DNA of 64,000 nucleotides from an uncultured Candidatus Saccharibacteria bacterium (GTDB lineage: Bacteria; Patescibacteriota; Minisyncoccia; Sungbacterales; HO2-52-23): assembly GCA_964585475.1 (NCBI GenBank), contig CAZPDF010000001.1, positions 81,337 through 145,336 on the forward strand, in the 5' to 3' direction. The notes under the pieces were generated by a model that made no database searches, was not told the origin of the DNA, and saw only the letters and a program-made list of their open reading frames with translations. Below are positions 1,772 through 48,833 of this stretch, piece after piece. Each line of letters starts with the position of its first letter. Position 1 is the first letter of the stretch. Made by a program: the position numbers and the translations under genes.

Positions 1772-4252
1772 ATGGAAAAATCTAAAATTATCGTATTTTC
1801 CACCGCCTATCACCCATTTACAGGCGGTGCCGAGATTGCAATTCAGGAAGTATTGAGGCGGCTTCAAGACCGCTTTGACCCGCGCACAGAAAGGCCAAAT
1901 GAGCTAGGCGAGGCCAGCGGCCTTTTGTGCGGGGCTTCGCCCTCCGCACGGACCCCAAAAAGTAGTGGTAATACAAGGGAAAGTTCAAGCCCGTGCTCCG
2001 GGCTCCGTTTTTATATTGTAACTTCCCGTTTCAGGCGGGATTTACCAAAGATCGAAGAGCGACCCGAGGGAACCGTTATTCGGTTAGGGTTAGGGACACG
2101 TTTCGATAAATGGTTTCTCCCTTTTCTTGGTTTTTTTTCCGCCCGCAGAATCATTCGGTCAAATGTCAATGGTCAAACGTCAAATGTTGTCATGTGGGCC
2201 GTAGATATCGGGCAGGGGTCACTGGCAGCTGCGGTTTTCAAACTTTTTCATCCCCGCATCCCTTTAATTTTAACACTCCAATATGGATATGGAGCAGGAA
2301 GAGTTGTAGGGGGGCGACTTGGTCTTATTGGTGTGGCGTTTCGTTTCATGCTACGCCGCGCGGATTATGTCACAGCGATTTCAATATACTTATTAAATCT
2401 CGCGAAGAACCATGGATATAGAGGGTCGGGAAGCATAGTGCATAATGGAGTAGATATAGAAAAGTTCACCCCGTCATTCGACCGGGTGCCCCGTCGAATG
2501 ACGGGGCAAAATCCAAATTCTAAAACAGTAATCACTGTCTCCCGGTTGGTGCCCAAAAATGGCATAGATACGCTGATTAGCGCCATAGTCGAAGTTAAAA
2601 AATCAATCCCACAAATTCGTTGCCACATTCTTGGTGAAGGACCAGAAAAAGAAAGTTTAAAGTCACAAGTTAAAAGTTTAAAGTTGGATGAGAATGTCGA
2701 GTTTTTTGGGAATGTTCCGTATGACGAGATATCGAAATATCTTCACGAAGCCGATGTTTTTGTAAGGGCCTCGCGCTCGGAGGGCATGGGGAATGCATTT
2801 GTTGAAGCGTTGGCGGCAGGTGTCCCGATTATTGGCACGCCGGTTGAGGGAATACTTGATATTATTCAGGATGGCAAGACCGGTTTTTTTGCGCGGGTGG
2901 ACGATCCCAACGATCTTGCGCAAAAAATCGTCTATGTCCTTCAAAATGAAAAGGAGAGCGAGCAGAGCGTTACGGAAGGAAGACGAATGGTTGAAGAAAA
3001 ATTTTCCTGGAATGGGATCGCGCAAAAATACAGGTTTATTTTCGACCGCTACTATAGAGGCGAAACCTCTATAGTATCTATAGAGGTTTCGCCTCTCCGT
3101 ATAGTTATTGCCACCCCTCTTTATCCGCCACAGCTTGGGGGGCCAGCAATTTATGCAAAGAATTTAGGTGAGGAATTTTCTCGCTTAAGGCATCAAGTAT
3201 CCATTGTTTCCTTTGGTAAGTTTTTGCGTCTGCCGTCTTTGGTCAGGCATTTTCTTTATTTTTTTAAGGTTTTTCGTAGTTCCATTGGCGCGGATATTAT
3301 TTTTGCCCTGGATTATTTTAGCGTTGGGGCGCCGGCCGCCCTCGCCGCCCTGCTTTTATGTAAGCCACTCGTCATCCGCGTAGAAGGCGATTTTTTGTGG
3401 GAGAGTTATGTCGAGCGAAGAAGGAGCGATACAACTCTTTCTATGTTTTACCCCGCTAGAAGTCAGCCCCGACGTGACGTCGGGGCTGCCGTTCCGCCGG
3501 TGGCGGAACGGACTTCTAACGGGGCTTACCGGAATCTCCCGAGATTGTCGGCCAAAGAGCGAGTGATCCATTTTATAAGCCGGTGGGTACTTGGACGCTC
3601 GCGCATTCTTGTTTTTTCTTCGGAATGGCGCCGCGAGATGGTTGTCGGCTCACGCGGCCATCTCCGCAAGAAGTCGATAATTATCGGGAATGTATGGCCT
3701 CCGCTTCTCGAAAATCTTTCGGCAGTTTCTCAAGGATCTCGTGTAATTCTTTGGGCCGGCCGCATGCTTTATTTAAAAAATCTATATCGTCTGCTCCGCG
3801 CGTTTTCCCGACTAAAATCTGATTACGAACTGCATTTGGTAGGGGATGGTCCGGAAGCGGAACGGCTAAAAAACTTTGTCACGCAGGAACGGATCAAGAA
3901 AGTTTTCTTTTTTCCCAAACTCCCGCATGAGGCGCTGCTTAAGAAAATGCGTGAGGCGGCATTTTTTGTTCTGCCCTCGCTTTCCGAGGTGGGCCCGAAC
4001 GTGATTGCTGATGCGGCATCTTCAGGAACCCCTTTTATTATGACGAGAGAGTCGGGTTATGCCGAGTATGCCAAGGATTTTGGAATTTTCGTTGATCCGC
4101 TCAATGAAAATGAGCTCACGCAAAAGTTGGGGATGCTAATGGAGGAGACCGCGCGCTATAATATAAGAAAGGGAATTATTAAATTCTACAGCGCCTATAC
4201 ATGGGGCGAGGCTGCTCAAGAATGGATTCAAGTATTCTCAAAGGTTCTATGA
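1772..4252 (+). CDS. Tandem-fused GT4-family (GT-B fold) glycosyltransferase with two complete GT4 units
   Basis: Two N-terminal GT4 motifs ('FSTAYHPFTGGAEI', 'IATPLYPPQLGGPAIY'). Two Glycos_transf_1-type C-domains ('EGMGNAFVEALAAGVPIIGT', 'SEVGPNVIADAASSGTPFIMT'). Confidence 0.7.
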   Translation: MEKSKIIVFSTAYHPFTGGAEIAIQEVLRRLQDRFDPRTERPNELGEASGLLCGASPSARTPKSSGNTRESSSPCSGLRFYIVTSRFRRDLPKIEERPEGTVIRLGLGTRFDKWFLPFLGFFSARRIIRSNVNGQTSNVVMWAVDIGQGSLAAAVFKLFHPRIPLILTLQYGYGAGRVVGGRLGLIGVAFRFMLRRADYVTAISIYLLNLAKNHGYRGSGSIVHNGVDIEKFTPSFDRVPRRMTGQNPNSKTVITVSRLVPKNGIDTLISAIVEVKKSIPQIRCHILGEGPEKESLKSQVKSLKLDENVEFFGNVPYDEISKYLHEADVFVRASRSEGMGNAFVEALAAGVPIIGTPVEGILDIIQDGKTGFFARVDDPNDLAQKIVYVLQNEKESEQSVTEGRRMVEEKFSWNGIAQKYRFIFDRYYRGETSIVSIEVSPLRIVIATPLYPPQLGGPAIYAKNLGEEFSRLRHQVSIVSFGKFLRLPSLVRHFLYFFKVFRSSIGADIIFALDYFSVGAPAALAALLLCKPLVIRVEGDFLWESYVERRRSDTTLSMFYPARSQPRRDVGAAVPPVAERTSNGAYRNLPRLSAKERVIHFISRWVLGRSRILVFSSEWRREMVVGSRGHLRKKSIIIGNVWPPLLENLSAVSQGSRVILWAGRMLYLKNLYRLLRAFSRLKSDYELHLVGDGPEAERLKNFVTQERIKKVFFFPKLPHEALLKKMREAAFFVLPSLSEVGPNVIADAASSGTPFIMTRESGYAEYAKDFGIFVDPLNENELTQKLGMLMEETARYNIRKGIIKFYSAYTWGEAAQEWIQVFSKVL
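3451..3524. repeat. Family-B palindromic element (CCCCGCTAGAAGTC...GACTTCTAACGGGG) inserted in frame in the GT4 fusion gene
   Basis: 14-bp terminal inverted repeats enclose the hairpin GCCCCGACGTGACGTCGGGGC. It is about 75 bp (25 codons) with no stop and encodes PARSQ...ERTSNGA. Confidence 0.7.
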
Positions 4253-4325
4253 ATCCCGCACATAATTTGGACTACTAATTTGTAAGAGATCGGAGCGTTG
4301 TTACATATTTCATCGACCTTCAACC

Positions 4326-4399
4326 GTCATTCTGAACGCAGTGAAGAATCTCTATATATTTACTGGTGATTTGAGATCCTTCGCTTCGCTCAGGATGAC
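4326..4399. repeat. Family-A palindromic element (GTCATTCTGARCG-AGTGAAGAATCT ... GATCCTTCGCTTCGCTCAGGATGAC), intergenic
   Basis: Imperfect inverted repeat about 26 bp per arm. The same family occurs at 111-241, 11826-11939, 46158-46245 and 48679-48755. Confidence 0.7.
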
Positions 4400-5704: not shown

Positions 5705-6768
5705 AACTTTTAATTGTAACTCAAAAAATTGATAGAAATGATGAACTGCTCGGCTCCTTCCACCGCTGGGTGCAAGAATTTGCGAAGCATGCGGAACGCG
5801 TTTCGGTCATCGCCGGTTTTGTCGGCGAGTACAACTTTCCTAAAAAAGTTGAAGTCTTCTCTCTTGGGAAGGAAGCGGGCCGCGGAAAAATAGGAAGGGT
5901 TTGGAGATTCTGGGAGTTATTTTCGAAGCAATATGCTTCTTCCGATGCTGTTTTTTTTCACATGTGTCCGGAATTTGTGCTTGCAGCTTTTCCGTTTCTG
6001 GCGTCTCTCAAGAGAACCACCGGTCTATGGTACGTTCATCGACTTGCTACGCGAAAATTAAAAATGGCTGAGAGGATGACCGATTTTATCTTCAGCGCAT
6101 CCGAGTCCACGTTTCTACTCCCTTCCAAGAAGGCGGTGATAACCGGCCACGCCATAGACACAGAATTTTTCAAGCCGGCCGAGGGCTCGCGGCTGCCAAG
6201 CGGAGGCTTGCAGCTTCTTACTGTCGGCCGGATCTCCCCTGTAAAGAATCTTGAAACCATAATTCATGCCGCCGCCATTCTTAAAAGTAAATTAGAGATT
6301 CCCTGGATCCTATCAATAGTCGGCGCTCCATTTATGCCTAGGGATCACGAATATTTTACTAAGATGCGGTCTCTTGCAAAAGAATATGGGCTTGAGGGCC
6401 GGGTGGTGTTCCAGGGCGCTCGGCCGTATGGCGAGATGCCCTCTCTTTACCGGGAGCACGATTTGCTGATTTCTCTTACCCCCACGGGGTCTTTTGACAA
6501 AGCAGCGCTTGAAGCGATGTCCTGCGGGCTTACGATCGTTACCGCGAGTGCGGGTTTTAAGGATTTCATACCTGCGCGTTACGTTTTAGAACACTCAAGC
6601 CCGGAATTTCTGGCTGAAAGGGTGTTGGCGCTCGCCAAAGAGAATAGGCCGAATGTAGTACTTCGCGAGGCGGTGCTGAAATACCATAGTCTTGAAAAAA
6701 CCGTAAAAAAGATCGTCGAGTCGCTCGCGTTATTTAATGTCCCGTATCCAAATTTGCCCTTGTCATGA
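5692..6768 (+). CDS. GT4-family glycosyltransferase
   Basis: 'GRISPVKNLETII', 'SLTPTGSFDKAALEAMSCGLTIVTA'. Confidence 0.65.
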   Translation: MSFMKLLIVTQKIDRNDELLGSFHRWVQEFAKHAERVSVIAGFVGEYNFPKKVEVFSLGKEAGRGKIGRVWRFWELFSKQYASSDAVFFHMCPEFVLAAFPFLASLKRTTGLWYVHRLATRKLKMAERMTDFIFSASESTFLLPSKKAVITGHAIDTEFFKPAEGSRLPSGGLQLLTVGRISPVKNLETIIHAAAILKSKLEIPWILSIVGAPFMPRDHEYFTKMRSLAKEYGLEGRVVFQGARPYGEMPSLYREHDLLISLTPTGSFDKAALEAMSCGLTIVTASAGFKDFIPARYVLEHSSPEFLAERVLALAKENRPNVVLREAVLKYHSLEKTVKKIVESLALFNVPYPNLPLS

Positions 6769-10757: not shown

Positions 10758-12401
10758 ATGCGCGAGAAAACTATTTTTTTTCTCATTATATTTTCCATCT
10801 CGTTTTTTTTCTCCACATATAAACTTACCGAGAGTCCGCCCACGTGGTATGATGAGGGTTTTTTCTTCAACGTCGCCAGAAGCTACGCAGAATTTAACGA
10901 ATATAAATTTCAGGTAGCTCCGGGTGAATTTGTGCCCATGGGAAGGTATCTTACGGTTGGGTATCCGGTTATTTTCCCGGTTAGTATCTCGATGAAATTA
11001 GCCGGAGTGGGCCTCTTTCAGGAGCGAGCAGTAATGGCGGCTTTTATTCTCCTCTTAGTATGCGCGGTCTTCTTCTTTTTCTTGAGGAGACATGCCCCTG
11101 CGGAGGCGTTTCTTTTCACCCTGTTTTTTATAAGTTTTGGGTCTCTTTATGGAAATGGGAAAAATTTACTGGGCGAGATACCGGGAATTTTCTTTCTCAC
11201 AGCATTTTTATTGTTCTTTAACCTGCTTTTGGAAAAGAATCGGGGAAAAATGTATTTTGCCCTGCTCGCCGGTACTGCCTTGGGCCTCGGCATACTCTGC
11301 AAGCCCATTTTTATACTGGTAATCCCCGCATTTATAATCACTTTTTTGATTTTACGAAAAGATATACTGTTGAAAATCACGCGTAAGCACCTGGTTTTAT
11401 TTTTAGCTGCCGTTTTGGTGCCGCTTCTGGCCGCTATTTTTATTCAGTTTAATCGCTCGGACGATTCTTTGCTGACGGCTATTTTATTTTATATGAATCC
11501 TGCCGGCTGGAGTGGTTTTTCTGAAGTGCCGTCTATAATAATGCAAAATCTCCTGCGTCTGGTAACCGGTGCCACACCCTTGCATTTTCTTCTGCTCCTC
11601 GCTATCTGGACTTGGTGGATAGTGAAAAGAGTTCGCTGCAATTCTATACATTCTTTGCCTCCTGGCGAGCTATTCACTTTTTTATTTGTTATTTTAGTGG
11701 GATTTGCTTATTTAAGGACCCTTGGATGGTATAAGTATTTCTTTCCCGCGCATATGATGGTTTTTCTCTATTTCCCCGCCGCTCTTAAGGCACTTATAGA
11801 ACTGATAACGAGCAAATCCGCAAATGTCATTCTGAGCGTAGCGAAGAATCTCCCGCTTTGGGCGCAAAAGATCCTTCACGGAGCCTACCCTGAGATTCTT
11901 CACTTCGTTCAGAATGATGATCGAAGGGTTCAGGATGACAGCGGAAAAAGTGTCTTACTCGCTACCAATTCTGAATCTTCCATACAATATCTAAGAGGAC
12001 GGTTTGGGTTTCCTAATTTATTTCAGTGGGCGTTCATCGTCATAATTGTGATACAATTTTATCACCTGGTGTTTTTATCCTGGGTTTCCGGTTACTATTC
12101 AAGTACGCAGTCCAAAGAATTATCTGATTATTTTTCCGGCATTTCGCACGAAGAGAGTGTTTTTATCCACAGCGCCCCGGAAGCGGTTCTTTTCGTCCCT
12201 TCCAGTAACTATTATTTGTATCTGGATGATGTAATGGTAAGAAATATTGGCGCAGAACAGCTCGAGAAACTCGCCAGTGGAGTTCCCGACGTCGTTATTA
12301 TTCCTACGGAGTTAATAGATAGCCAGAGACAGTACCTCGCGCATTATAGAAAAGAAAAAGAACTCGTGGGTCAGTACACTGTTTTGAGAAAAGCGCCATG
12401 A
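10758..12401 (+). CDS. GT39/ArnT-like (PMT_2-type) integral-membrane glycosyltransferase
   Basis: Multi-TM N-terminal two-thirds typical of ArnT/PMT family GT-C enzymes. Follows a GT2 gene. Carries an in-frame family-A repeat. Confidence 0.5.
   Translation: MREKTIFFLIIFSISFFFSTYKLTESPPTWYDEGFFFNVARSYAEFNEYKFQVAPGEFVPMGRYLTVGYPVIFPVSISMKLAGVGLFQERAVMAAFILLLVCAVFFFFLRRHAPAEAFLFTLFFISFGSLYGNGKNLLGEIPGIFFLTAFLLFFNLLLEKNRGKMYFALLAGTALGLGILCKPIFILVIPAFIITFLILRKDILLKITRKHLVLFLAAVLVPLLAAIFIQFNRSDDSLLTAILFYMNPAGWSGFSEVPSIIMQNLLRLVTGATPLHFLLLLAIWTWWIVKRVRCNSIHSLPPGELFTFLFVILVGFAYLRTLGWYKYFFPAHMMVFLYFPAALKALIELITSKSANVILSVAKNLPLWAQKILHGAYPEILHFVQNDDRRVQDDSGKSVLLATNSESSIQYLRGRFGFPNLFQWAFIVIIVIQFYHLVFLSWVSGYYSSTQSKELSDYFSGISHEESVFIHSAPEAVLFVPSSNYYLYLDDVMVRNIGAEQLEKLASGVPDVVIIPTELIDSQRQYLAHYRKEKELVGQYTVLRKAP
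11826..11939. repeat. Family-A palindromic element inserted in frame in the GT39-like gene
   Basis: GTCATTCTGAGCGTAGCGAAGAATCT...AGATTCTTCACTTCGTTCAGAATGAT plus a trailing GTTCAGGATGACAGC. Translates without stop as ANVILSVAKNLPLWAQKILHGAYPEILHFVQNDDRRVQDDSG. Confidence 0.65.
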
Positions 12402-18166: not shown

Positions 18167-18310
18167 GCGGGCAGCAATGTCCGCTTGTTTGTTACTTGCG
18201 GCAGACCTGTTGACTCAGCTTAGCAAACCATTTATCGTATAAAAGTGGTTACATATGAATAGGAGATGATTGGGCTGTCCGAAATTAACCTTTTTGATTA
18301 TATAAGGACA

Positions 18311-18324
18311 GACTTCTAACGGGG
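18311..18324. repeat. Solo family-B half-site (GACTTCTAACGGGG) abutting the start codon of the next gene
   Basis: Identical to the right arm of family-B elements. No left arm found within 150 bp upstream. Confidence 0.4.
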
Positions 18325-18755
18325 TGGAAATAACTAAAGGCATAAAACCGGAATTTGCGGATATAAGAGGCGCCATTACCAAAATTCTGGACGATGGCAG
18401 GACGAATATAAAAAGCGTCCTTTTGATCACTTCCAAAAAAGGAGCTATCCGCGCGAATCACTATCATAAAAAAGATACGCACTACTGTTATATGCTTTCG
18501 GGAAAAATGGAGTATTTTGAAAAGCCGGTCCCTAGGTCGCTTGATGCGACCGGGATTCCGGCCGAAGGTTTAGGGATTGACGGAGGAAAGATTGAATCGG
18601 CAGTGCTTGAAGTTGGCGATATGGTTTTTACCCCATCGATGCACGTCCACGCCTTTAAATTTCTTGAAGACACCGTGTGGGTTACGCTTGCCACCGAGTC
18701 AAGGTCGCAGGCCGATTACGAGGCGGACACGGTAAGGGTTAAATTCATAGAATAA
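18324..18755 (+). CDS. WxcM/FdtA-like cupin (dTDP-4-keto-6-deoxyhexose 3,4-ketoisomerase-like)
   Basis: 'ADIRGAITKIL...VLLITSKKGAIRANHYHKK...YMLSGKMEY' resembles the FdtA/QdtA core. GTG start. Confidence 0.5.
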   Translation: MEITKGIKPEFADIRGAITKILDDGRTNIKSVLLITSKKGAIRANHYHKKDTHYCYMLSGKMEYFEKPVPRSLDATGIPAEGLGIDGGKIESAVLEVGDMVFTPSMHVHAFKFLEDTVWVTLATESRSQADYEADTVRVKFIE

Positions 18756-22098: not shown

Positions 22099-24648
22099 AT
22101 GCAGACATTTAGTTATTTACTTTTATCTTGGGTTAAACGATGTTGGCCCCTTCTTTTATTGGGCTTGGTGGTTTTTGCGTCTTTCGCGCCCCTCTTTTTT
22201 GGATACATGTTTTCCGATGATGAACAGATTGGGTTTTACTACCCGCAAAGTTTTTTCTATCAAAAATCTCTGCAGGAGGGCGCATCTACCCTCTGGAATA
22301 ATGCCTACTACGGCGGCGTATCCGTCAGTTTGGACCAATTCGTCAGCTCCTATTACCCCCTGCACCAGATTCTTTTCAGGATTTTTAACTTTTTTACCGC
22401 GCACCATTTAAGTATCTTGATTGCGGTGGTTCTCGGCTGTTTTTTTGCCTATTGGTTCGGGAGAGCGAATGGATTCGCGCGATCCTCTTCTTTCGTTCTT
22501 GCGGTATCGTACTTTACGGCGACAACTTTTGACTGGCTCTCCATCGGAACCCTGGCCGCGCACGCATTTATAGTCCTGCCCGCCATGCTTCTCTCGCTAC
22601 TTCGGGTGCATCAGGGGAAAAATTCTTTCGCGTTTGCGATTCTTGGGGGCGCCGCGCTTGGCGTCGGGTTTCTGGCCGGTTTCATGCAGATTATTTTCTA
22701 TATTTGCGCGGCTGTTTTTTTCTACGCCCTGTTTTTGGATTGGCAGAGAAGAAAAGAGCCAACCCTCCAAGGAGTTTCCCGTCTGGGTAAATTTTGCGGG
22801 CGTTTCCGCGTCACCCTTGTCTTAGCCGCCATGGTTCTGGTAGCCCTCCTCATCGGCGGGCGCCAAATTCTGCCTTCGATATTTTTTATTGATCTCACTA
22901 TTCGTTCCTCAACTTATGCTTTGCAGCGCCACGATTTGCCGAGTATCTCGCAAATTTTCACGGTTATCTTCCCGCCTCATGTGCGGATACCTTTTTTGGA
23001 TACTGGCTTGACCGGGGTCTACATCGGGACTTTGCCGCTTCTTGCGACAATATTAGGGATTATTTTTTCGAGGACCATATTTTCGAGGTTTTTCTTGTGT
23101 CTCTACCTGATTTTCTTGGGTCTTGCTTTTCACGCTCCGGTTATTTCTTTATTCAATGACTATATACCGCCTTATTCTCATATGGGGCATCAGGCACGCT
23201 GGCTTCTGCCGGGAGCTCTCTTTTTGGGGTTTCTTGCCGCTCAAGGATTTGAAGGGCTGATTTCCGGGAAAATTGTCTTTAAGCAGGCGCGGTCCATTTT
23301 AAAAGTTTTTGGGTGGGCCGTGCTCTTTATTTTTGCGTTCGTCGTAGCTGCCAATATTTTTTTTCAGATGTTGGATGCGCGGCCCGATACCCAACAGAAA
23401 ATTATTGAATGGCATTTTGGGGAAAGAACTAAAATATATTCTAACGAGCATTATTTAAATGTACTGGGTCTTGCTATAAAAAACGGGGCAGCGGCCATAT
23501 CTTTGCTGAATTGGAGATTTACACTTCCGCTTTTCTTGATTCCTCTTTCTTATTTTCTTATCCGGTACTTTTTGGAAAATAAAATCTCTTTGAAAATATT
23601 CCAGTTTCTTTCGATCGCCATGATTTCCTTAAGCGCATTTATCTCATATGCGGGGAATTTTTATAAATTTGTTCCTCAGGGCGTGGTGGTAAGGGAGCCG
23701 CAGGTCGTCCAGGAAATCAAAAAGCGGGAGCAAAACCCATCTGAGTTTCGGATTATAGGATTTTTGATTGCGGACTCGCTTTTTTGGAAGTTATCAAGTA
23801 AAACTTCGTTAAGCCCGGCGGAATTGGCCCCGATCCTAAAGGAGGTTCTGGCCGGCAACAGCAACGTCTTCTACGGCCTTGAGAGAATTGACGGTTTTGA
23901 GCCTTATCGTACACTCCGTCACAACGGCCTTTTGGATACGGTGCTTCTTCCCGGGCGTCCCCAGATTTTGGATACCAACTCTGTCGCTTTTCGCGAGGGC
24001 ACTTTTGGCAAGTTTCTTAATAAGGATGTCTGGAAAAATGCGACGCTGGAGGAGAAAATCGGCGATTTCACGTCGCGTATCCCTTTGCTCTCCATGCTCA
24101 ATGTAAAGTATATTTACTCTTTGGTTCCTTTGGCGGATCCGCGTCTCGAAGAGATCGGATTGTCGTCCAATGCCTATGTTCCGGTTCCGCTGTATTTATA
24201 CCGAAATAAAGAAGTTATGCAGCGAATTTATTTTTCTCGAGACGTCCGATTTTTTTCCGGGAGGGATTCTGATCTCCTGCGGGAGATTGAAAAAACCAAA
24301 GATTTCAGAGCTAAGACCTGGATCGAGTGTCCCGACTGCATTTTGGCTGGTGCCGCAACCCCAGGCGATTCTGTGGTGATAGAGCATTACGAAAGCGGGC
24401 GGGTTTTGGTGCGCGCGAGGACCGAAAAAGGTCAGTGGCTTGTTTTTAGCGAATCTGCCATGCCCGGTTGGATTGCAGAAATTGACGGGGCCGATACTCC
24501 CATCTATAATGCTAATTATATTTGGCAATCGGTGTATGTCCCGCCGGGGGAGCACAGAATAGAATTTAAATATTATGACATTACTATCCTCAAATGGAAG
24601 GAACTGCAGGAGAAAATAAAAGAAAAAATTTCAACCCCTTTAAATTAA
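22099..24648 (+). CDS. YfhO-like large polytopic membrane protein (glycan/teichoic-acid glycosylation GT-C-like)
   Basis: About 850 aa. More than 12 TM segments. C-terminal soluble domain ending '...MPGWIAEIDGADTPIYNANYIWQSVYVPPGEHRIEFKY', typical of YfhO. Confidence 0.5.
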   Translation: MQTFSYLLLSWVKRCWPLLLLGLVVFASFAPLFFGYMFSDDEQIGFYYPQSFFYQKSLQEGASTLWNNAYYGGVSVSLDQFVSSYYPLHQILFRIFNFFTAHHLSILIAVVLGCFFAYWFGRANGFARSSSFVLAVSYFTATTFDWLSIGTLAAHAFIVLPAMLLSLLRVHQGKNSFAFAILGGAALGVGFLAGFMQIIFYICAAVFFYALFLDWQRRKEPTLQGVSRLGKFCGRFRVTLVLAAMVLVALLIGGRQILPSIFFIDLTIRSSTYALQRHDLPSISQIFTVIFPPHVRIPFLDTGLTGVYIGTLPLLATILGIIFSRTIFSRFFLCLYLIFLGLAFHAPVISLFNDYIPPYSHMGHQARWLLPGALFLGFLAAQGFEGLISGKIVFKQARSILKVFGWAVLFIFAFVVAANIFFQMLDARPDTQQKIIEWHFGERTKIYSNEHYLNVLGLAIKNGAAAISLLNWRFTLPLFLIPLSYFLIRYFLENKISLKIFQFLSIAMISLSAFISYAGNFYKFVPQGVVVREPQVVQEIKKREQNPSEFRIIGFLIADSLFWKLSSKTSLSPAELAPILKEVLAGNSNVFYGLERIDGFEPYRTLRHNGLLDTVLLPGRPQILDTNSVAFREGTFGKFLNKDVWKNATLEEKIGDFTSRIPLLSMLNVKYIYSLVPLADPRLEEIGLSSNAYVPVPLYLYRNKEVMQRIYFSRDVRFFSGRDSDLLREIEKTKDFRAKTWIECPDCILAGAATPGDSVVIEHYESGRVLVRARTEKGQWLVFSESAMPGWIAEIDGADTPIYNANYIWQSVYVPPGEHRIEFKYYDITILKWKELQEKIKEKISTPLN

Positions 24649-25499
24649 AGGAGACGCTGGCTTGTCCTATTTGTCGGGGCGCGCTTAATCAAAAGGGCGA
24701 GGAGATGATTTGTGTGGACGCACAGCACGGCCCATTTTTGATTGACGGGGCGCATAGACTCCACTTGATGGCTGGTGGCGACGAGGATAAGTATTCAAAA
24801 GCGCATCAGGGGGGGATTAATTGGCTGAAGTCGTTTCTCAAGCAATATCCCAAGCTATATTATTTTACCTGGAACTTATTTTGTCCGGTGCTTTTGAGTG
24901 GAAAGGGGCCGCGTGCAGTACTGGCACTCCTTACCGGTCATGCGCCCATAATATTGAATCTCGGCTCGGGCCCCAGGCGCTTGGGAGAGGAATTTATTAA
25001 TATTGATGTATTTCCTTTTCCGGAGGTGGATATAGTTGCCGATGCCGCGCATCTTCCGTTTGTAGATAATTCGGTTGACGCGGTTGTCAGCGAATCCCTG
25101 CTGGAGCATGTCCCGGATCCTCACGCTGTGGTGCGCGAGATGACAAGGGTTCTGAAGCCGGGCGGTATTCTTTATACGAATACTCCGTTTCTTACGCCCT
25201 ATCACGCATCCCCCGATGATTTCAGCCGTTGGACGCAAAGCGGACTGCGTTCTCTTTTCTCCGAATTCGCCGTAATTGAGGAAGGGGTAAGCGCCGGCCC
25301 TTGGAGCGCGTTACTCGTATTTCTTGCTTATTGGCTGGGAGTTCTTTTCTCTTTTGGCTCGCGCCGGCTTGCCCCTGTTTTGGGAGTACTTTTTATGATT
25401 CCGCTCGGCCCGTTAAAATTTCTTGATTTTCTTTTTGCCCGTATTCCCGGAAGCGAAGCGGTGGCGGCGCAACTTTATTTTATCGGTAAAAAAAAATAA
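24594..25499 (+). CDS. Trm112-like Zn-ribbon fused to a class I SAM methyltransferase with a C-terminal membrane segment. The start is uncertain and overlaps the upstream gene by 55 nt.
   Basis: 'LACPICRGAL'. Motif I 'ILNLGSGPRRLG'. 'LLEHVPDP'. 'LKPGGIL'. Hydrophobic C-terminus. Confidence 0.5.
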   Translation: MEGTAGENKRKNFNPFKLKETLACPICRGALNQKGEEMICVDAQHGPFLIDGAHRLHLMAGGDEDKYSKAHQGGINWLKSFLKQYPKLYYFTWNLFCPVLLSGKGPRAVLALLTGHAPIILNLGSGPRRLGEEFINIDVFPFPEVDIVADAAHLPFVDNSVDAVVSESLLEHVPDPHAVVREMTRVLKPGGILYTNTPFLTPYHASPDDFSRWTQSGLRSLFSEFAVIEEGVSAGPWSALLVFLAYWLGVLFSFGSRRLAPVLGVLFMIPLGPLKFLDFLFARIPGSEAVAAQLYFIGKKK

Positions 25500-25502
25500 T
25501 TT

Positions 25503-25575
25503 ATGCTTTTGTCAGTCGTCATCCCGGCATATAACGAGTGGAAAACCATTCGTGCGATTGGAGCTAGTGACCCCG
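25503..25575 (+). pseudogene. Orphan 5' fragment of a GT2 glycosyltransferase gene (MLLSVVIPAYNEWKTIRAIG...) truncated by a palindromic element
   Basis: Near-identical to the N-terminus of the intact GT2 at 26299 ([19 protein letters not shown]). The frame runs into repeat 25571..25764. Confidence 0.5.
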
Positions 25576-25764
25576 TTAGAAATCCAGCCATGGCTATATT
25601 ATTAAGAAGGTAGAAAGGCGAAGCCCCGTTTGAAAGCTCGCATTGCAAGCATCTCGAAGTAAAAAATTGCCTGCGGTTTGACAAACAACTTTCTGACGAG
25701 GCGAAGCCGACTTACGTCTATCCGCTTCTTTAAACGAAGTACCTTTTTAAGATTTCTAACTGGG
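25571..25764. repeat. Family-B palindromic element (CCCCGTTAGAAATC...GATTTCTAACTGGG), 194 bp
   Basis: 14-bp terminal inverted repeats. Lies between the GT2 fragment and the TA cassette. Confidence 0.55.
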
Positions 25765-25771
25765 TTGACGT

Positions 25772-26038
25772 ATGGCCAAGGTAGAGTATGCTGATAACAT
25801 GAATACTTCTGCAATTATTGCAGTTCGTCTTCCAAGGGAAGAAAAGAAGCGGTTGGGCCGTTTGGCTTTGCGCTACGGTCTTTCTCTCCCGGAATTTTCC
25901 CGCCGCGTGCTGACTGAACTTGCGGCAGAGATTCCCGAAGAATCCCTCAAGGATTATGAGAATCCAAGGAAACTTAGCGCCTCGTATCAACGCGCGCTCC
26001 GTGATTGGAAAACTGGCCGTGTGCGCACCCGAATATGA
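25772..26038 (+). CDS. Ribbon-helix-helix (CopG/RHH-like) antitoxin
   Basis: 'IIAVRLPREEKKRLGRLALRYGLSLPEF'. ATGA overlap with the downstream RelE-like gene. Confidence 0.55.
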   Translation: MAKVEYADNMNTSAIIAVRLPREEKKRLGRLALRYGLSLPEFSRRVLTELAAEIPEESLKDYENPRKLSASYQRALRDWKTGRVRTRI

Positions 26039-26292
26039 ATATTGTCTACGCAGAGGAGTTTGTGAAGCGATTGGACAAACTTTCTTCAGAAATTCAGCGG
26101 CTTTACCGCAGACAGGAAGCCCGATTTCGAAATAATTGGCGCGATCCGCGTCTGCATATTAAGAAGTTGAAAGATCATCCGTTTCCCTTCTCATTCCGCA
26201 TCACCCGTAGATACCGGGTGCTTTTTACGTTTGTAGCAGTCGATACTGTTCTTTTTGCAACCATCGGCCATAGACGCGGTAGTTACCGCTAA
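26035..26292 (+). CDS. RelE/ParE-family type II toxin
   Basis: 'FSFRITRRYRVLFTFVAVDTVLFATIGHRRGSY' matches the RelE/ParE C-terminal signature. Confidence 0.7.
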   Translation: MNIVYAEEFVKRLDKLSSEIQRLYRRQEARFRNNWRDPRLHIKKLKDHPFPFSFRITRRYRVLFTFVAVDTVLFATIGHRRGSYR

Positions 26293-26298
26293 CCTCAC

Positions 26299-27027
26299 AT
26301 GTTTATCTCCGTCATAATCCCAACCTACAATGAGGAAAAAACTATTCGCGAGATCGTTGCGCGGGTTAAAAAGGTTTCCATTCCAAAAGAGATTGTTATT
26401 GTGAATGACGGCTCGACAGATGCCACCCCGAAGATTTTGGAAGAATTGAAGGCGACCGCAAAAACGGATCAGAATTTTCTAGGGATTGTCGTTATAAATA
26501 AAAAAAACAACGGCAAGGGTTCGGCACTCAAGAAGGGGATTGAAGCTGCTCGCGGCGACATTATTATTTTTCAGGACGCCGATCTTGAATATGACCCCGA
26601 AGATTACCACAATCTTATCCGTCCGATTCTTGAGGGGCATGCGCGCGTGACAATGGGTTCTCGAATGTTGATCAAGCAAAACATATGGACGGCTGGCAGG
26701 CACTACCTTGTTTATCTTCGAAATCATATAGGGGTTCGCACCATGACGTTTCTGACCAATTTTTTATATCGGCAAAACGCTACCGATTATTGGGGATGCT
26801 ACAAGGCGTTTCGCGCAGATATTTTAAAAAGCATTCCGATCGAAGCCGACGGTTTTGCGTTTGATAATGAACTTGTCTGTAAGATTCTTCGTAGAGGTCA
26901 TACCATCCATGAGGTCTCTATTCGGTATCGACCCCGAAGCTATGAAGAGGGGAAAAAAGTAAAGATGCGGGATGGCCTGAAGAGCTTGTGGACAATTTTA
27001 AAATGGCGCTTTGTGCCATTTAAGTGA
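26299..27027 (+). CDS. GT2-family polyprenyl-phosphate glycosyltransferase (DPM1-like)
   Basis: '[14 protein letters not shown]'. '[10 protein letters not shown]'. '[11 protein letters not shown]'. Confidence 0.8.
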
Positions 27028-27148: not shown

Positions 27149-28774
27149 TTACACCTCGCGGCAAAGTAGCGCCGAAGAAATCTTGCGCCAAGAGCGTAGG
27201 GTATTCCCAAAGAGCGGGGTAAAACCGTAACTGGCGAGGATAAATATGAAGGCGTTTACGGGGTAGCGGAAGCGGCCCTGGTCGCTGAAGCCGGCCACCG
27301 TACTCGTCAGAGCATAAGTGAAGATTATGGCGCTCATGATAAGCGCTATTTTTCTTTCCTGCCCGCCGCGTTTTATGGCGTAAGCCGCGCCCAAGACCCA
27401 TAAGACATTAAAAACGATCCATAGAGCCCGTCCGGCAACTGGAATGGGGGCGAACCATCCGATTCGTTCCCAGACAAGTTTTGCGAGTTTCATCGGCCCT
27501 TCCTGAAATAGGGTCACCGATGGGGAAAAATCAATCTGGAAACGGGGTACTGCGTGAAAATGTTGTAGATAAGTGAGATAGAGGTCTTGGGCAAAGAAAG
27601 TGGACATGCTGATTAAGACGACCTGTGCAGTCTCTTTTGGATAAGTAATGATGGTTTGCAGGCCCTCTTTTGCAAGCGCGGTGCCTATGCTCGGATTTTC
27701 TCCTATATCGCGGATTTCCAGGCCATGTCTTGCGGAAAAATCGCGGTTAAGCTCATTTTTTACTTCTCCGATGGGTCTTCCGGTGTTGAGAGAAAGAATT
27801 GAAGATCCGATGGAGGAGTAGACATTGCGGAGGCCGGTGGTGGCGATATTGAGGGTATTGAATTGATAGTAATTGCGGATGAGCCAGGGAGAAAGCACGA
27901 CGAAGAAAGCAAGGGTAAAAGCCAGCAATATGCGACTTCCTCGGTATTTTGCTTCTCCGGCACGCTCATCCGCTCCAGCGGCGGATTCGCTAAGGGTCGG
28001 TCGAGCCGCCCCGCCTTCGGCGGGTACCGAGCCGGCTCTACCTCCCATTACCGGCGAAGCAAAATACCTCGGCAGTATTTTAGATCGCCGCCACCTTAGG
28101 AGAAGGATGGAGAGAAGAAAGAAGAAGCCGAGTATAAAAAGAAATTGCGCGTGAGGGCGCGTTAGGGTGGAGAGCGCGAGGAAGATTCCGGCGAGAGCCG
28201 CATAGCGCATTCCCCAATCATCAACCCCGTTAGAAGTCTGTTCCGCCGAAGGCGGAACAGCAGATGCCTGTGGCATCTGACTTCTAACGGGGTCAAGGGT
28301 TTTTAAAAAAAAGTATGTCGCAAGAAGTAGAAAAAAAACCGCAACCGTTTCGGTAAGAACAAGAATGCTCCATACAGCACCCATCGGCTCAAACGCCATG
28401 AGTCCTGCGGCCAAAAGCGGTACCCCCCCCGACTTAGCAAGAAATTTAGCGATCGCGTATACCAGAATCGGCATAAGCGAAGAAAGAATTATTTGTAGTA
28501 TAAGTAGGGGCAGCATTGATCCGGAAAGTTTGAGGGAGCCCGCCATGAGCAAGGGAAAGATCGGAGGAAAATGGGCGCTTGGCTGGAAAGGTAGCGCTTC
28601 GCTTCCACTGAATCCGTTTCCGGCGACGATGTTCTTTGCCGTTAGAAGAAATCCGTAGGAATCGGATGTAAAAGTTTTTTCTTCGCCAAGCGTGTGGATA
28701 ATAGTAAAAAGCAGTGCAGCCCTTAAGACAAAAGTTGCGACAACGATAATGAGAAGTGTTCGCGGCAAATTCAT
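27149..28774 (-). CDS. GT39/ArnT-like integral-membrane glycosyltransferase with an in-frame family-B repeat and a C8/G8 homopolymer
   Basis: Multi-TM. 'LTAKNIVAGNGFSGS' ArnT/PMT-like N-region. Convergent with the GT2 at 26299. Confidence 0.5.
   Translation of the reverse strand: MNLPRTLLIIVVATFVLRAALLFTIIHTLGEEKTFTSDSYGFLLTAKNIVAGNGFSGSEALPFQPSAHFPPIFPLLMAGSLKLSGSMLPLLILQIILSSLMPILVYAIAKFLAKSGGVPLLAAGLMAFEPMGAVWSILVLTETVAVFFLLLATYFFLKTLDPVRSQMPQASAVPPSAEQTSNGVDDWGMRYAALAGIFLALSTLTRPHAQFLFILGFFFLLSILLLRWRRSKILPRYFASPVMGGRAGSVPAEGGAARPTLSESAAGADERAGEAKYRGSRILLAFTLAFFVVLSPWLIRNYYQFNTLNIATTGLRNVYSSIGSSILSLNTGRPIGEVKNELNRDFSARHGLEIRDIGENPSIGTALAKEGLQTIITYPKETAQVVLISMSTFFAQDLYLTYLQHFHAVPRFQIDFSPSVTLFQEGPMKLAKLVWERIGWFAPIPVAGRALWIVFNVLWVLGAAYAIKRGGQERKIALIMSAIIFTYALTSTVAGFSDQGRFRYPVNAFIFILASYGFTPLFGNTLRSWRKISSALLCREV
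28225..28292. repeat. Family-B palindromic element in frame in the GT39-like gene
   Basis: CCCCGTTAGAAGTC...GACTTCTAACGGGG. Encodes DPVRSQMPQASAVPPSAEQTSNGVDD on the minus strand. Confidence 0.7.
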
Positions 28775-29647: not shown

Positions 29648-30433
29648 ATGACTTTAGACTTTTATAGAAAAATTAGACATGTTCCAGCCGGTATTCTTGC
29701 AAAATTCTTTGAAAGACAGGCGGAAATGACGCTCCGAAAAAATCGTCCTTTGTGGGGTTTACTGCAGGATTATCTTAAAAATTCGCCCTCAACCGGATGC
29801 GCCTATTCTGATTATCTTCTTCTCTATAATTACATCAGAAACAGAAAGCCCAAGGAAGTTCTTGAGTGCGGTACGGGGGTTTCCACAGTTGTTATTGCGT
29901 ATGCGCTGAAAGAGAACGAACGGGATTATGGGATTAAGGGCAGGGTTACTTCAATGGAAGAATCGCCTAATTATTACAATGTAGCGCTAAAGCTGTTTCC
30001 AGAGAGAGAGAGCCTTAAAAGCTATGCAGAGATAGTATTGAGTCCGGTGATGGAAGATACTTATCATTTCTTTCGCGGCATACGTTATAAAGATGTTCCT
30101 TTGCGGCCATATGATTTTGTATTTGTGGATGGCCCTGATTATTTGTGCGATCCAAAAGGCGAGATAATTTTATTCAATTTTGATTTTGTGGATATAGTTA
30201 GAAAATCAGAAAAACCCGTAGGGGCCCTGATAGATACCAGAACCACCACCTGTTTTGTGTACTCACTGCTTTTTGGAGATGAGTTTAGATATGACTATGT
30301 GCGAAAAGTGGGAATCGTGGAGCCGGTTACGAAAAACGATCTCGCGCCGGTCCAAAAAATTGTCGCAAGGTCAATGAGGGCGCATTCATTCAAAAGGCCG
30401 CCTTTCCTGAATTTCATACGAGGAACTTATTGA
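29648..30433 (+). CDS. Class I SAM methyltransferase (Methyltransf_24/CmcI-like)
   Basis: 'VLECGTGVSTVVIAYAL'. 'DFVFVDGPD'. Confidence 0.45.
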   Translation: MTLDFYRKIRHVPAGILAKFFERQAEMTLRKNRPLWGLLQDYLKNSPSTGCAYSDYLLLYNYIRNRKPKEVLECGTGVSTVVIAYALKENERDYGIKGRVTSMEESPNYYNVALKLFPERESLKSYAEIVLSPVMEDTYHFFRGIRYKDVPLRPYDFVFVDGPDYLCDPKGEIILFNFDFVDIVRKSEKPVGALIDTRTTTCFVYSLLFGDEFRYDYVRKVGIVEPVTKNDLAPVQKIVARSMRAHSFKRPPFLNFIRGTY

Positions 30434-31905
30434 ATACAGGTATGAAAACAATTTTTATTACTATTGATGATCCGGCGGCACTAAAGAACATTTTCGGCAC
30501 CAAAGCATGGCCCGAGGTTTTGCGATCTTCCGCGGATGCCAAACTCGTGCTTTTGACGAGGCCTAGCAAAAAGGAAGCACACGAGAAGTTCTTTGTTGCG
30601 CCGAACATCGTGGTTGAAGCGCTTGATCCTGCGTTTGATTCTCTTATGTCGGGCGTAATTGCGTCTCTGGCCCGCAGCGGGATTAGAACCCATACCAATC
30701 TTTGGTCTAAAATGCGCTCTTACGAACGGGGTGATTCTGGGTTTTTGGTGACAATGTTCAAGCGGGCATATACTTTTCTTTTGGGCGGATCGTCTCTCAA
30801 TAAGAGGTTTTTGCGTCGTATCTTTCTGGGGCTTGCGCCGGCCAAAGCGACGGCCGCACTCTTTGAAAAATATCAGCCCTCGCTTCTTTTTGCGACCTCG
30901 CTCACCAACATTGATTTTGACGTGCCTATCGCGGTTGAGGCGAAAAGGCGCGGCATACGGATCGTCGGCATGGTGCGAAGCTGGGATAATTTTTCGAGCC
31001 ACGGGCTCACTCGTGTAATCCCGGATCGGTTGATCTTGCAAAATAAGTTTTTAAAAGATATGGCCGAGCGGCACCAGGCTATCACCGAAAAAGACGTGCC
31101 GATCGATATCGTTGGTTTGCCGCACTATGACATGTATGTCGGTTTTGAAAAAATGCTTGAAAGCAGAGAATCATTTTTCCAAAGGATGGGGCTCGACCCT
31201 TCAAAAAAACTGATTCTTTACGGGGCAATGGGGGATTTTCTTTTTCCGAATGAGGGGGGAATGGCCGACGTGCTTGAGGAACTGATTGACCCCGTTAGAA
31301 GTCAGACGCCAAAGGCATCTGCTTATTCCCAAGGGAATCAGACTTCTAACGGGGTTGAATCGCGGGCTATTCAAGAGCCAGCCCAAGTTCTTTTCCGCGC
31401 CCACCCAAAATTCAATAGTCCCCTTGAAAGGATGAAAGGAATGAAACATGTTAAGCCGGACAAAGACGTGTCCAATAGTACGGGCGATTTCATGAAGCAT
31501 CTTATAAATTCCATTTACCATAGTGATATTGTTGTTGCTGGCGCATCTACGATCGTGATTGATTCTATAATGTTGGCAAAACCCGTGATTTGCGTTGGTT
31601 TCGATGGCCTTGAAAAAAAGGTTCCCTATTGGACTTCGGTAAAGCGTTTTTATGACTGCTACACGCATTTTGAAGCGTTAATGGAAACAGGCAATATACC
31701 GCTTGCGAATACCAAAGCAGAATTGGCGCGTTTAATAGATGAGGCCCTCCGGCAGAAATCCTACGACCAAGAGCCGCGCCAAAAAGTGATTGATCTTTTC
31801 GTGGCGCCATTTGATGGACATTCAAGCGAGCGGCTCGCCCAAATCTTAGTCAAAGAATTTACTAGTATACGAGATGGACAGCGGATTCAACCAAAAATTC
31901 ATTGA
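30430..31905 (+). CDS. GT-B-fold polysaccharide biosynthesis protein (CDP-glycerol glycerophosphotransferase TagB/F-like or capsule-synthesis KpsS-like) with an in-frame family-B repeat
   Basis: Two Rossmann-like halves. 'FRAHPKF...IVVAGASTIVIDSIMLAKPVICV'. The family assignment is uncertain. Confidence 0.35.
   Translation: MNTGMKTIFITIDDPAALKNIFGTKAWPEVLRSSADAKLVLLTRPSKKEAHEKFFVAPNIVVEALDPAFDSLMSGVIASLARSGIRTHTNLWSKMRSYERGDSGFLVTMFKRAYTFLLGGSSLNKRFLRRIFLGLAPAKATAALFEKYQPSLLFATSLTNIDFDVPIAVEAKRRGIRIVGMVRSWDNFSSHGLTRVIPDRLILQNKFLKDMAERHQAITEKDVPIDIVGLPHYDMYVGFEKMLESRESFFQRMGLDPSKKLILYGAMGDFLFPNEGGMADVLEELIDPVRSQTPKASAYSQGNQTSNGVESRAIQEPAQVLFRAHPKFNSPLERMKGMKHVKPDKDVSNSTGDFMKHLINSIYHSDIVVAGASTIVIDSIMLAKPVICVGFDGLEKKVPYWTSVKRFYDCYTHFEALMETGNIPLANTKAELARLIDEALRQKSYDQEPRQKVIDLFVAPFDGHSSERLAQILVKEFTSIRDGQRIQPKIH
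31290..31354. repeat. Family-B palindromic element in frame in the TagF-like gene
   Basis: CCCCGTTAGAAGTCAG...GACTTCTAACGGGG. Encodes DPVRSQTPKASAYSQGNQTSNGVE. Confidence 0.7.
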
Positions 31906-46090: not shown

Positions 46091-46157
46091 TTTTGAACCT
46101 TATCAGGAAATTATTGAAAAGGCAAATAATTTAGGACTTACGCGTTTGGCCAATTTC

Positions 46158-46245
46158 GTCATTCTGAACGAAGTGAAGAATCTCGTTAACCAGACTTTTC
46201 TCGTTATACTGCCATCCGAGATCCTTCGCTAGCGCTCAGGATGAC
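46158..46245. repeat. Family-A palindromic element, intergenic
   Basis: GTCATTCTGAACGAAGTGAAGAATCTC...GAGATCCTTCGCTAGCGCTCAGGATGAC. Confidence 0.65.
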
Positions 46246-47793: not shown

Positions 47794-48645
47794 ATGATGC
47801 TAAAGAATAAAAAAGCGATTATAACCGGAGGAGGTCGGGGAATTGGCAAGGCGGTGGCTGAAGCATTCGCTAAAGAAGGAGCGGATATTTTGTTGATTTC
47901 CCGTACCCGACAGGAGCTGGAGGCGACTAGTCGCGAATTGAGTCGTCAGGACCAGAGCGTAATAGTCGAGTCAGCCGATGTATCTAAAGTGGAGGACGTA
48001 GAAAACATCCGTAGAATTGTGCAAGAATCCTGGGGCCGAGTTGATATTTTAGTGAATGCGGCCGGCATATACGGACCCATAGGTTGCCTGGAGGATCTTG
48101 ATCTAGAGAATTGGATGCAAACTTTTTCGGTAAATATTTTCGGCACCGTACTTATGTGCCGTATGGCGCTGCCATTTATGAAAAAGCAAAAATGGGGGAG
48201 GATTATTAATTTTTCCGGAGGAGGTGAAGGCCCTCTGCCTAGATTCACCGCTTACTCTTCGTCCAAGGGAGCGGTGGTAAGGTTCACGGAGTCCTTGAAT
48301 GAGGAGGTCAAGGGGGACAATATTTGTGTAAACGCCATAACTCCCGGGCCCGTAAATACTGCCTTTTTGGAGGAGGTGCTCAAGGCCGGTTCGGAGCATG
48401 CAGGGGAAGATTTTTATCGCCAGGCCTTGGAGCAAAAAAAAGAGGGCGGGATTCCTCCGGAAAAAGCTGCGCGGCTTTGCTTATTTTTAGCAGGCGAGGA
48501 GGCCCACGGAATTGGCGGCAAAGTTTTGAGTGCCGTCTGGGATAATTGGCAGGATATTCCTAAGCATTTGAAGGAAATCATGGGATCGGATATATATAAT
48601 TTTAGAAGGATTAAACCAAGTGATCGCGGATATACCGGGTGGTGA
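47794..48645 (+). CDS. SDR-family oxidoreductase
   Basis: 'ITGGGRGIGKAVAEAF'. 'YSSSKGAV' YxxxK. Confidence 0.7.
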   Translation: MMLKNKKAIITGGGRGIGKAVAEAFAKEGADILLISRTRQELEATSRELSRQDQSVIVESADVSKVEDVENIRRIVQESWGRVDILVNAAGIYGPIGCLEDLDLENWMQTFSVNIFGTVLMCRMALPFMKKQKWGRIINFSGGGEGPLPRFTAYSSSKGAVVRFTESLNEEVKGDNICVNAITPGPVNTAFLEEVLKAGSEHAGEDFYRQALEQKKEGGIPPEKAARLCLFLAGEEAHGIGGKVLSAVWDNWQDIPKHLKEIMGSDIYNFRRIKPSDRGYTGW

Positions 48646-48646
48646 A

Positions 48647-48825
48647 CCCCGTTAGAAGTCTCAGCCCGTCCGAAAACTGTCATCCTGAGTGCTAACGAAG
48701 GATCTCTACCGTAGAAAATGGCTTAAATATTAGATTCTTCGCTTCGCTCAGAATGACAAAAATGTATTTTTAGGAGTTTTCGGACGGGCTGAGCAGATGC
48801 CTGCGGCATCTGACTTCTAACGGGG
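48647..48825. repeat. Composite nested palindromic element: family-B outer arms, a second inner inverted repeat (TCAGCCCGTCCGAAAAC/GTTTTCGGACGGGCTGA) and a family-A element at the core (48679..48755)
   Basis: Outer arms CCCCGTTAGAAGTC / GACTTCTAACGGGG. Inner family-A arms GTCATCCTGAGTGCTAACGAAGGATCTC / AGATTCTTCGCTTCGCTCAGAATGAC. Confidence 0.65.
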
Positions 48826-48833
48826 TGAAAATT

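Follow-up and report, generated by a model that had tools for sequence, protein, structure and literature searches.

RelBE-type type II toxin-antitoxin (TA) systems, such as those of Escherichia coli (RelBE) and Methanocaldococcus jannaschii (RelBE3), place the antitoxin gene first and let it overlap the toxin gene by 4 nucleotides (nt). The catalytic residues of E. coli RelE are K52, K54, R61, R81, and Y87, and these are lacking in the ParE gyrase poisons. Bacterial MITEs (miniature transposable elements bearing inverted repeats) and Rickettsia palindromic elements (RPEs) are short, non-coding, multicopy sequences with inverted terminal repeats, target-site duplications, and a hairpin fold; RPEs insert in frame into protein genes, a tolerance described mainly for Rickettsia. 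Envelope-glycosylation clusters of Patescibacteria are thought to vary quickly. Homology-facilitated illegitimate recombination (HFIR) is established in other bacteria, E. coli among them (PMC3240628), and the sequential displacement of type VI secretion system effector genes in Vibrio cholerae leaves gene relics behind (PMC5361080). Here we describe a locus at positions 25503 to 26298 of a 64-kb stretch of contig CAZPDF010000001.1 (the window), in which the first 20 codons of a GT2 glycosyltransferase gene (the stub) are followed by a 195-bp palindromic mobile element, a predicted ribbon-helix-helix (RHH) antitoxin gene, a RelE-family toxin gene, and a full GT2 gene. Each of these components belongs to a known kind, and the locus is an ordinary recombination scar that calls for no new mechanism: routine genome archaeology, in which the arrival of a selfish TA pair and a small transposable element in an operon left a gene relic behind. 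With modest confidence, we consider its most likely history to be that a resident GT2 gene gave way to a diverged allele with the TA cassette linked to it.

A TA cassette at an operon junction

A first-pass annotation, made from the sequence alone, named all of these features, and they are present at 25503-26298 with the coordinates it gave. On the upstream side, the operon partner of GT2 is a gene for an S-adenosylmethionine-dependent methyltransferase (24594-25499, + strand; Trm112-like zinc ribbon plus Methyltransf_11, Pfam PF08241, 8.7e-16) with its stop codon at 25497-25499. The stub (25503-25562, + strand) lies at the native GT2 start position. Its open reading frame (ORF; 25503-25613) has its ATG 3 nt past the methyltransferase stop, begins MLLSVVIPAYNEWKTIRAIG, continues into the palindromic element (ASDPVRNPAMAILLRR), and reaches a stop codon at 25611-25613, inside the element; the GT2 N-terminal fragment of the annotation is thus present, at a length of about 20 codons instead of 24. 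The element, a MITE-like member of what we call family B, is delimited by an inverted-repeat pair (core 25571-25765; 25567-25769 including flanks) and has no assigned strand. A predicted TA promoter (25765-25792, + strand) precedes the genes for a 79-amino-acid (aa) antitoxin (25799-26038, + strand) and an 85-aa toxin (26035-26292, + strand), which share the ATGA at 26035-26038. The intact GT2 gene (26299-27027, + strand; 242 aa) has its ATG 6 nt downstream of the toxin stop and encodes a full PF00535 domain (3.2e-40; 138.2 bits, profile positions 1-166 of 168, above the Pfam threshold). These coordinates bear out the annotated layout of stub, element, TA pair with ATGA overlap, and GT2 start 6 bp after the toxin, as well as the claim that an RHH/RelE-type TA pair is embedded in a glycosylation gene cluster.

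Several relatives share the gene order YfhO-like protein, methyltransferase, GT2. The cassette is absent from locus L149, where GT2 starts 4 nt past the methyltransferase stop; from L150, where the methyltransferase stop and GT2 start overlap (TGATG); and from L151/L152, where the gap is 1 nt. In these relatives, GT2 is translationally coupled to the methyltransferase gene. On the right-hand side, the synteny anchor is a convergent gene for a PMT-type glycosyltransferase (27149-28774, - strand), and the same convergent PMT_2 gene comes after GT2 in L150. The nearest relatives have only ∼60 to 70% protein identity, and the GT2 orthologues directly after the methyltransferase are 60 to 70% identical. 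Because the relatives have GT2 0 to 4 nt after the methyltransferase gene, the DNA of 25503-26298 is an addition at the methyltransferase|GT2 junction of an envelope-glycosylation operon, and comparison with the syntenic loci upholds the insertion that the annotation had proposed. In an alignment, the stub ATG and the GT2 start codons of L149, L150, and L151 fall in register; because it sits where the GT2 of the relatives starts, the stub represents the native 5′ end of GT2.

The arrangement has support from other assemblies: it recurs in L001, obtained in another sequencing run and 100% identical to the window over 14.4 kb, and a third sample yielded L002, which spans the TA genes and the start of GT2 with 99.6% identity. 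The best relatives of the window's proteins are labelled Sungbacteria, Paceibacterota, or Parcubacteria, and by these protein matches the window is from a Patescibacteria-type genome. The window holds no tRNA genes that might serve as integration sites, and there is no Rfam match anywhere in it.

At the methyltransferase|GT2 junction, L153 carries a second methyltransferase. In L148, the same place is occupied by a 53-aa PDDEXK_3 gene remnant (5797-5958), which suggests that selfish DNA has repeatedly landed at this junction. Judging from gene order and spacing, translation of GT2 in the window is now probably coupled to the toxin gene instead of the methyltransferase gene, and the autoregulated TA promoter, read-through across the element, or a combination of the two probably governs its expression.

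Two GT2 5′ ends and the history of the locus

The stub peptide scores 67 (BLOSUM) against the N terminus of the downstream GT2, where shuffled peptides reach 24.6 ± 3.4 (z = 12.6). It agrees with the orthologue consensus at 17 of 20 residues, start codon included, and differs from it by E13W, E18A, and V20G; against Pfam PF00535, the stub alone gives 15.7 bits (E = 0.014), below the cut-off. Judged by these comparisons, the stub is a real GT2 relic.

Compared codon by codon, the two GT2 5′ ends are not recent duplicates. They are identical at 40 of 60 nt and 13 of 20 residues, and they use the same codon at 5 of 12 conserved non-Met residues, where random draws with the window's codon usage give an expectation of 4.5 at synonymous saturation. 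Over the whole gene, the fraction of identical codons between the intact GT2 and its orthologues from other genomes is 0.36 to 0.45, and the first 60 nt of the orthologues are pairwise identical at 35 to 46 positions; because codon identity lies in the same range, the stub and the intact copy are as distant as orthologues of different genomes. Their similarity begins exactly at the ATG, and the bases upstream are not shared. The annotation had suggested either an insertion with duplication of the target 5′ end or a gene-conversion scar, and both fail on the 40 of 60 nt and the saturated synonymous sites: the fragment has no nucleotide-level homology with the downstream GT2 beyond protein conservation, which, by the annotation's own criterion, refutes the duplication.

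At positions 2, 3, 6, and 9, the stub keeps the consensus residue and the intact copy has changed. The two copies appear to have diverged while both were working genes, and the stub appears to have been inactivated recently, since a neutral relic of such age would be unrecognizable, yet the stub is near consensus; this reasoning draws on 60 nt. We tested 15 further loci of this TA family whose downstream gene runs in the same direction; that gene's 5′ end was duplicated at none of them (z from -1.2 to 1.7), and a duplicated 5′ end was rejected as a general signature of the family (absent in 15/15).

The replacement that we favor would have run as follows. Two GT2 copies would have diverged as working genes in different lineages, and a DNA segment with the TA cassette and the diverged GT2 allele would have replaced the resident GT2, the right-hand crossover being homologous and the left-hand join, at about codon 21, illegitimate. 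The mechanism would be HFIR or an equivalent event. In a later step, the 195-bp family-B element would have entered the -35 box of the cassette by transposition into its TTGA, duplicating the TTGA so that an intact -35 box remains on the right side of the element. As in HFIR and allele displacement, an incoming segment would have replaced a resident gene with one homologous and one illegitimate end, and a short relic of the resident gene lies beside a diverged functional allele; the present case differs in being inferred from a single locus with a 60-nt relic, without a donor arrangement having been found. It would be a clean example of inferred allele replacement in the envelope-glycosylation clusters of Patescibacteria, for which, to our knowledge, genetics is absent.

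Several points weigh against this history. The donor-type arrangement, with the TA family directly upstream of this GT2, is absent from 86 other TA loci, none of which has a GT2, methyltransferase, PMT, or YfhO homologue adjoining the TA pair. The GC content of the TA genes and GT2, overall and at third codon positions (GC3), is typical for the window (z from -0.8 to -0.2), so composition gives no sign of recent transfer. Because the closest relatives have ∼60 to 70% protein identity, the replacement cannot be dated and its right-hand end cannot be placed. The divergence argument is based on 60 nt only. As to the cassette itself, the predicted toxin structure has low confidence (pLDDT 66.6), with RelE3 and RelE at the top of the Foldseek ranking at E = 0.09 to 0.17, and the Pfam matches of antitoxin and toxin both lie under the curated cut-offs.

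The main alternative, which we judge unlikely, is that the stub is the rest of a second, tandem GT2 paralogue that stood between the methyltransferase and the present GT2, the remainder having been deleted with the arrival of the TA pair. Synonymous saturation would be accounted for, L148 has two tandem GT2 genes after the methyltransferase, and a 230-aa paralogue type (L057) has an almost identical N terminus. However, the gene after the methyltransferase in L149, L150, L151, and L148 is the 242-aa type, an orthologue of the intact copy (in L148 it follows the PDDEXK_3 remnant after the methyltransferase), and the required gene order is seen in no relative.

Somewhat less probable again is an origin in situ, by insertion of the TA cassette at GT2 codon ∼21 with duplication of the first ∼60 nt and divergence of the copies in place. 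The stub and the intact copy do belong to the same orthologous GT2 family, the stub stands at the native start, and a comparison of 60 nt has limited statistical power. However, at saturated synonymous sites (5/12 codons against 4.5 by chance) and a distance equal to that of inter-genome orthologues, a neutral stub should be unrecognizable, yet 17 of its 20 consensus residues are kept and the copy under selection has at least as many changes as the stub. The start of similarity exactly at the ATG, without shared upstream bases, and the lack of such a duplication at the other TA loci (0/15) also speak against it.

The palindromic element, which the annotation held to split the GT2 5′ end, is distinct from that break. 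It is flanked by a 4-bp target duplication, GTGA (25567-25570) and TTGA (25766-25769), and removing the element with one flank joins ...ATTGGAGCTAG to TTGACGTATGGCC..., which connects the stub with the TA promoter. Because its removal joins the stub to the TA promoter and not to GT2, the element did not split GT2; by its own target duplication, it is a separate arrival into the TTGA of the TA -35 box, with the box regenerated on its right side. A history in which the element disrupted GT2 at codon 21, and the sequence on its right was later deleted or rearranged, is very improbable. The stub ORF reads straight into the left terminal repeat of the element, and family-B copies do insert within genes; however, the usual 4-bp direct repeat makes the right flank the original neighbor of the left flank, and the right-hand duplicate is the TTGAC -35 box conserved in the TA family. 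Finally, that the stub is a chance ORF or a functional leader peptide, as its shortness and a Pfam E value of only 0.014 might suggest, is scarcely credible against its similarity to GT2 far above shuffles (z = 12.6), its 17/20 consensus residues including the start codon, and its exact orthologous position, and a conserved leader peptide of this kind was not seen in other loci.

A resemblance over ∼15 nt between the 3′ end of the toxin gene and that of the L150 methyltransferase gene was judged to be chance, as both encode -IG(H/R)(R/K)-.

Beyond the replacement of one GT2 allele, a tentative and rather doubtful extension is that in these small genomes the promoter-bearing cassette may drive turnover of surface-glycan genes, moving by recombination with the glycosyltransferase allele just downstream. 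If this were true, a downstream envelope gene would rely on the cassette for transcription and translational coupling, which would make the pair hard to delete ("addiction by operon capture"), and the tight or overlapping junctions of the toxin with housekeeping genes (Dus-like, TsaE) elsewhere would be the same phenomenon.

The RelE-family toxin and its antitoxin

Similarity of the toxin to characterized RelE toxins is significant and runs over the full length. A profile of 24 family members matches M. jannaschii RelE3 (PDB 3bpq, chain 3bpq_B) at 4.2e-8 over residues 1 to 84 and E. coli RelE at 1.8e-3 to 1.4e-2, the 85 aa being alignable full length to both; the single toxin sequence matches RelE3 at 5.9e-4. 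PHROG 1213, "RelE-like toxin," is matched at 6.7e-10. Toxin residues R61, R80, and Y84 align to the catalytic R61, R81, and Y87 of E. coli RelE; R80 and Y84 are invariant in 24/24 aligned family members, and R61 is kept in at least 90%. The family differs from RelE in that K54 is replaced by an invariant R55 and K52 by an invariant S53, so that of the RelE catalytic residues three are identical, one is conservatively changed, and one is replaced. The annotation had made its assignment depend on conserved RelE catalytic residues, and on alignment the equivalents of R61, R81, and Y87 are indeed kept. Read from the alignment, these residues favor a ribosome-dependent mRNA endonuclease over a ParE-type gyrase poison.

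Both TA proteins differ from RelBE in lying below the curated cut-offs of Pfam and NCBIfam. For the toxin, Pfam ParE_toxin PF05016 gives 16.7 bits against a cut-off of 23 and PF24732 gives 18.8 against 24.4; PF05016 is matched by 22 of the 24 family members, at best with 3.4e-4. Because the Pfam matches stay below the curated cut-offs, the toxin clade is divergent. PADLOC returned no defense-system match for antitoxin or toxin. An AlphaFold model of the toxin has the element order of the RelE fold (β-α-α-β-β-β), and in the Foldseek search with this low-confidence model the top-ranked RelE3 and RelE have TM scores of 0.32 to 0.39; the structure prediction was too weak for a fold-based assignment.

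Alignment of ∼55 homologues sets the antitoxin start at ATG 25799 and its length at 79 aa, not 88; a longer ORF (25772-26038) opens at an alternative upstream ATG, 25772. As in RelBE, the antitoxin appears to have two parts, the N-terminal one RHH-like and DNA-binding, the C-terminal one toxin-binding. Matches of this antitoxin to RHH models are all below the cut-offs (NikA-like, 0.0011; RHH_1, 0.035; DUF6290, 0.046), as is that to the NCBIfam RelB antitoxin (0.016), and CopG in the PDB is matched at 0.28. Within the antitoxin family (15 members), DUF6290 is matched by 10/15, at best with 2e-6, and RHH_1 by 6/15, at best with 1.8e-4. Designed repeat proteins matched by the antitoxin profile in the PDB were set aside as an artifact of one short helix motif.

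The antitoxin gene lies directly upstream of the toxin gene and is translationally coupled to it, and the two are conserved as a pair: among 87 homologous loci, most of those with a recognized antitoxin ORF have the antitoxin gene ending 3 nt into the toxin gene. The C-terminal toxin-binding motif of the antitoxin is conserved even where the N-terminal domain differs, a pattern that indicates probable domain swapping in the DNA-binding half. In L125, L133, L137, and L146, we observed an antitoxin N terminus that is unrelated and a C-terminal motif that is the same (…IP.E.L.DY..P..IK.SY…). From what is known of the family, we would expect an antitoxin dimer to repress the promoter and neutralize the toxin, and free toxin to cleave mRNA on the ribosome.

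The promoter was predicted by a promoter scan and has a layout found family-wide. In the window it reads TTGACG-16-TATGCT-GATAAC-ATG, with the -10 box ending 6 nt before the antitoxin ATG, and many homologous antitoxins are preceded by TTGAC(A/G)-N16-18-TAnnnT ∼6 nt before the ATG. This suggests that the predicted promoter is functional, and the layout points to a leaderless antitoxin mRNA, a placement that would be a further difference from RelBE. An 11-mer at the promoter, TGACGTATGGC, is common to L069 and the window and might be an operator, although two sequences do not suffice to decide.

The cassette is compact and self-contained, comprising a predicted sigma-70-like promoter, the antitoxin gene, and the toxin gene within ∼530 bp. 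Public metagenomes contain at least 227 loci of the toxin, which has at least 144 cluster representatives at 55 to 76% identity; hardly any family member has a Pfam assignment. Going by these matches, the clade appears to be confined to Patescibacteria-type metagenome contigs, which also distinguishes it from RelBE. The comparison thus defines a conserved but unannotated RelE/RHH family for Patescibacteria.

Elsewhere, the TA family was observed to abut or overlap the starts of housekeeping genes (a Dus-like gene and TsaE) at distances of -14 to +12 nt (L062, L064-L067, L086, L104, L105, and L126). An MreB-TA-Dus arrangement occurs in L062 and partly in L063, and an ORF of similar size follows the toxin in several other loci. 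This arrangement and the recurring ORF suggest long-term vertical retention.

Family-B palindromic elements

The element at the stub has 15-nt inverted terminal repeats (25570-25584 and 25751-25765). The window has 11 matches to their consensus, CCCCGTTAGAAGTC, where 0.63 would be expected, and the 64 kb hold five paired family-B copies (69 to 199 bp) plus one solo end. The 4-bp flanks of the other copies are TTGA/TTGA, TCAA/TCAA, TGAA/TGAA, and TTTA/CTTA. The element at the stub folds as a long hairpin (-62.8 kcal/mol, z = -2.55), and the terminal repeats hold one compensatory change (GAAATC/GATTTC versus GAAGTC/GACTTC). Family B thus combines the characters of a MITE: inverted terminal repeats, several dispersed copies, no coding capacity, a target-site duplication, and an empty site in an orthologue (the PMT gene of L150). 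No transposase gene was noticed in the 64-kb window, and a partner transposase of family B was not identified.

Like RPEs, several family-B copies are translated in frame inside genes. The elements differ from known MITEs and RPEs in forming a sequence family of their own, with the terminal repeat given above and a 4-bp TTGA-like target, and in having a modular and nested interior. The literature searched yielded no report of such palindromic elements in Patescibacteria, and the locus puts a focus on the in-frame tolerance of palindromic elements within proteins.

In-frame copies were observed in three glycosylation genes, in the same frame each time (…PVRSQ…TSNG…): at 28221-28296 in the PMT gene on the - strand, at 31286-31358 in ORF 30430-31905, and at 3447-3528 in ORF 1772-4252. 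By alignment, the L150 PMT orthologue lacks exactly the 24 residues that the element encodes. The PMT gene also has a second in-frame insertion of ∼42 aa (…GGRAGSVPAEGGAARPTLSESAAGADERAGEAKYRGS…; 27935-28076), absent from the L150 orthologue; another inverted repeat, whose arms lie at 27935-27960 and 28051-28076, makes up this insertion. ORF 1772-4252 (826 aa) has two GT1-type glycosyltransferase domains with the family-B copy between them, and the element may have fused two once-separate genes by read-through.

An intergenic family-B copy at 48645-48827 nests two further palindromes, and because this copy contains other palindromes, family-B elements are modular and nested. One of the nested palindromes belongs to another repeat family (GTCATTCTGAGCG…CGCTCAGAATGAC), also found at 110-137, 4325-4352, 11825-11852, and 46157-46184.

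In L116, a family-B-like element (145-279) with the same internal AGGCGAAGCCG as the window copy lies ∼100 nt upstream of the TA pair and adjoins sequence that by eye resembles a tRNA gene. This proximity could be coincidence or a weak association of element and cassette; with one case in ∼55 loci, we do not claim that the two travel together. The solo family-B right end in the window (18309-18329) lies directly before the GTG start of a cupin-domain ORF (18324-18755).

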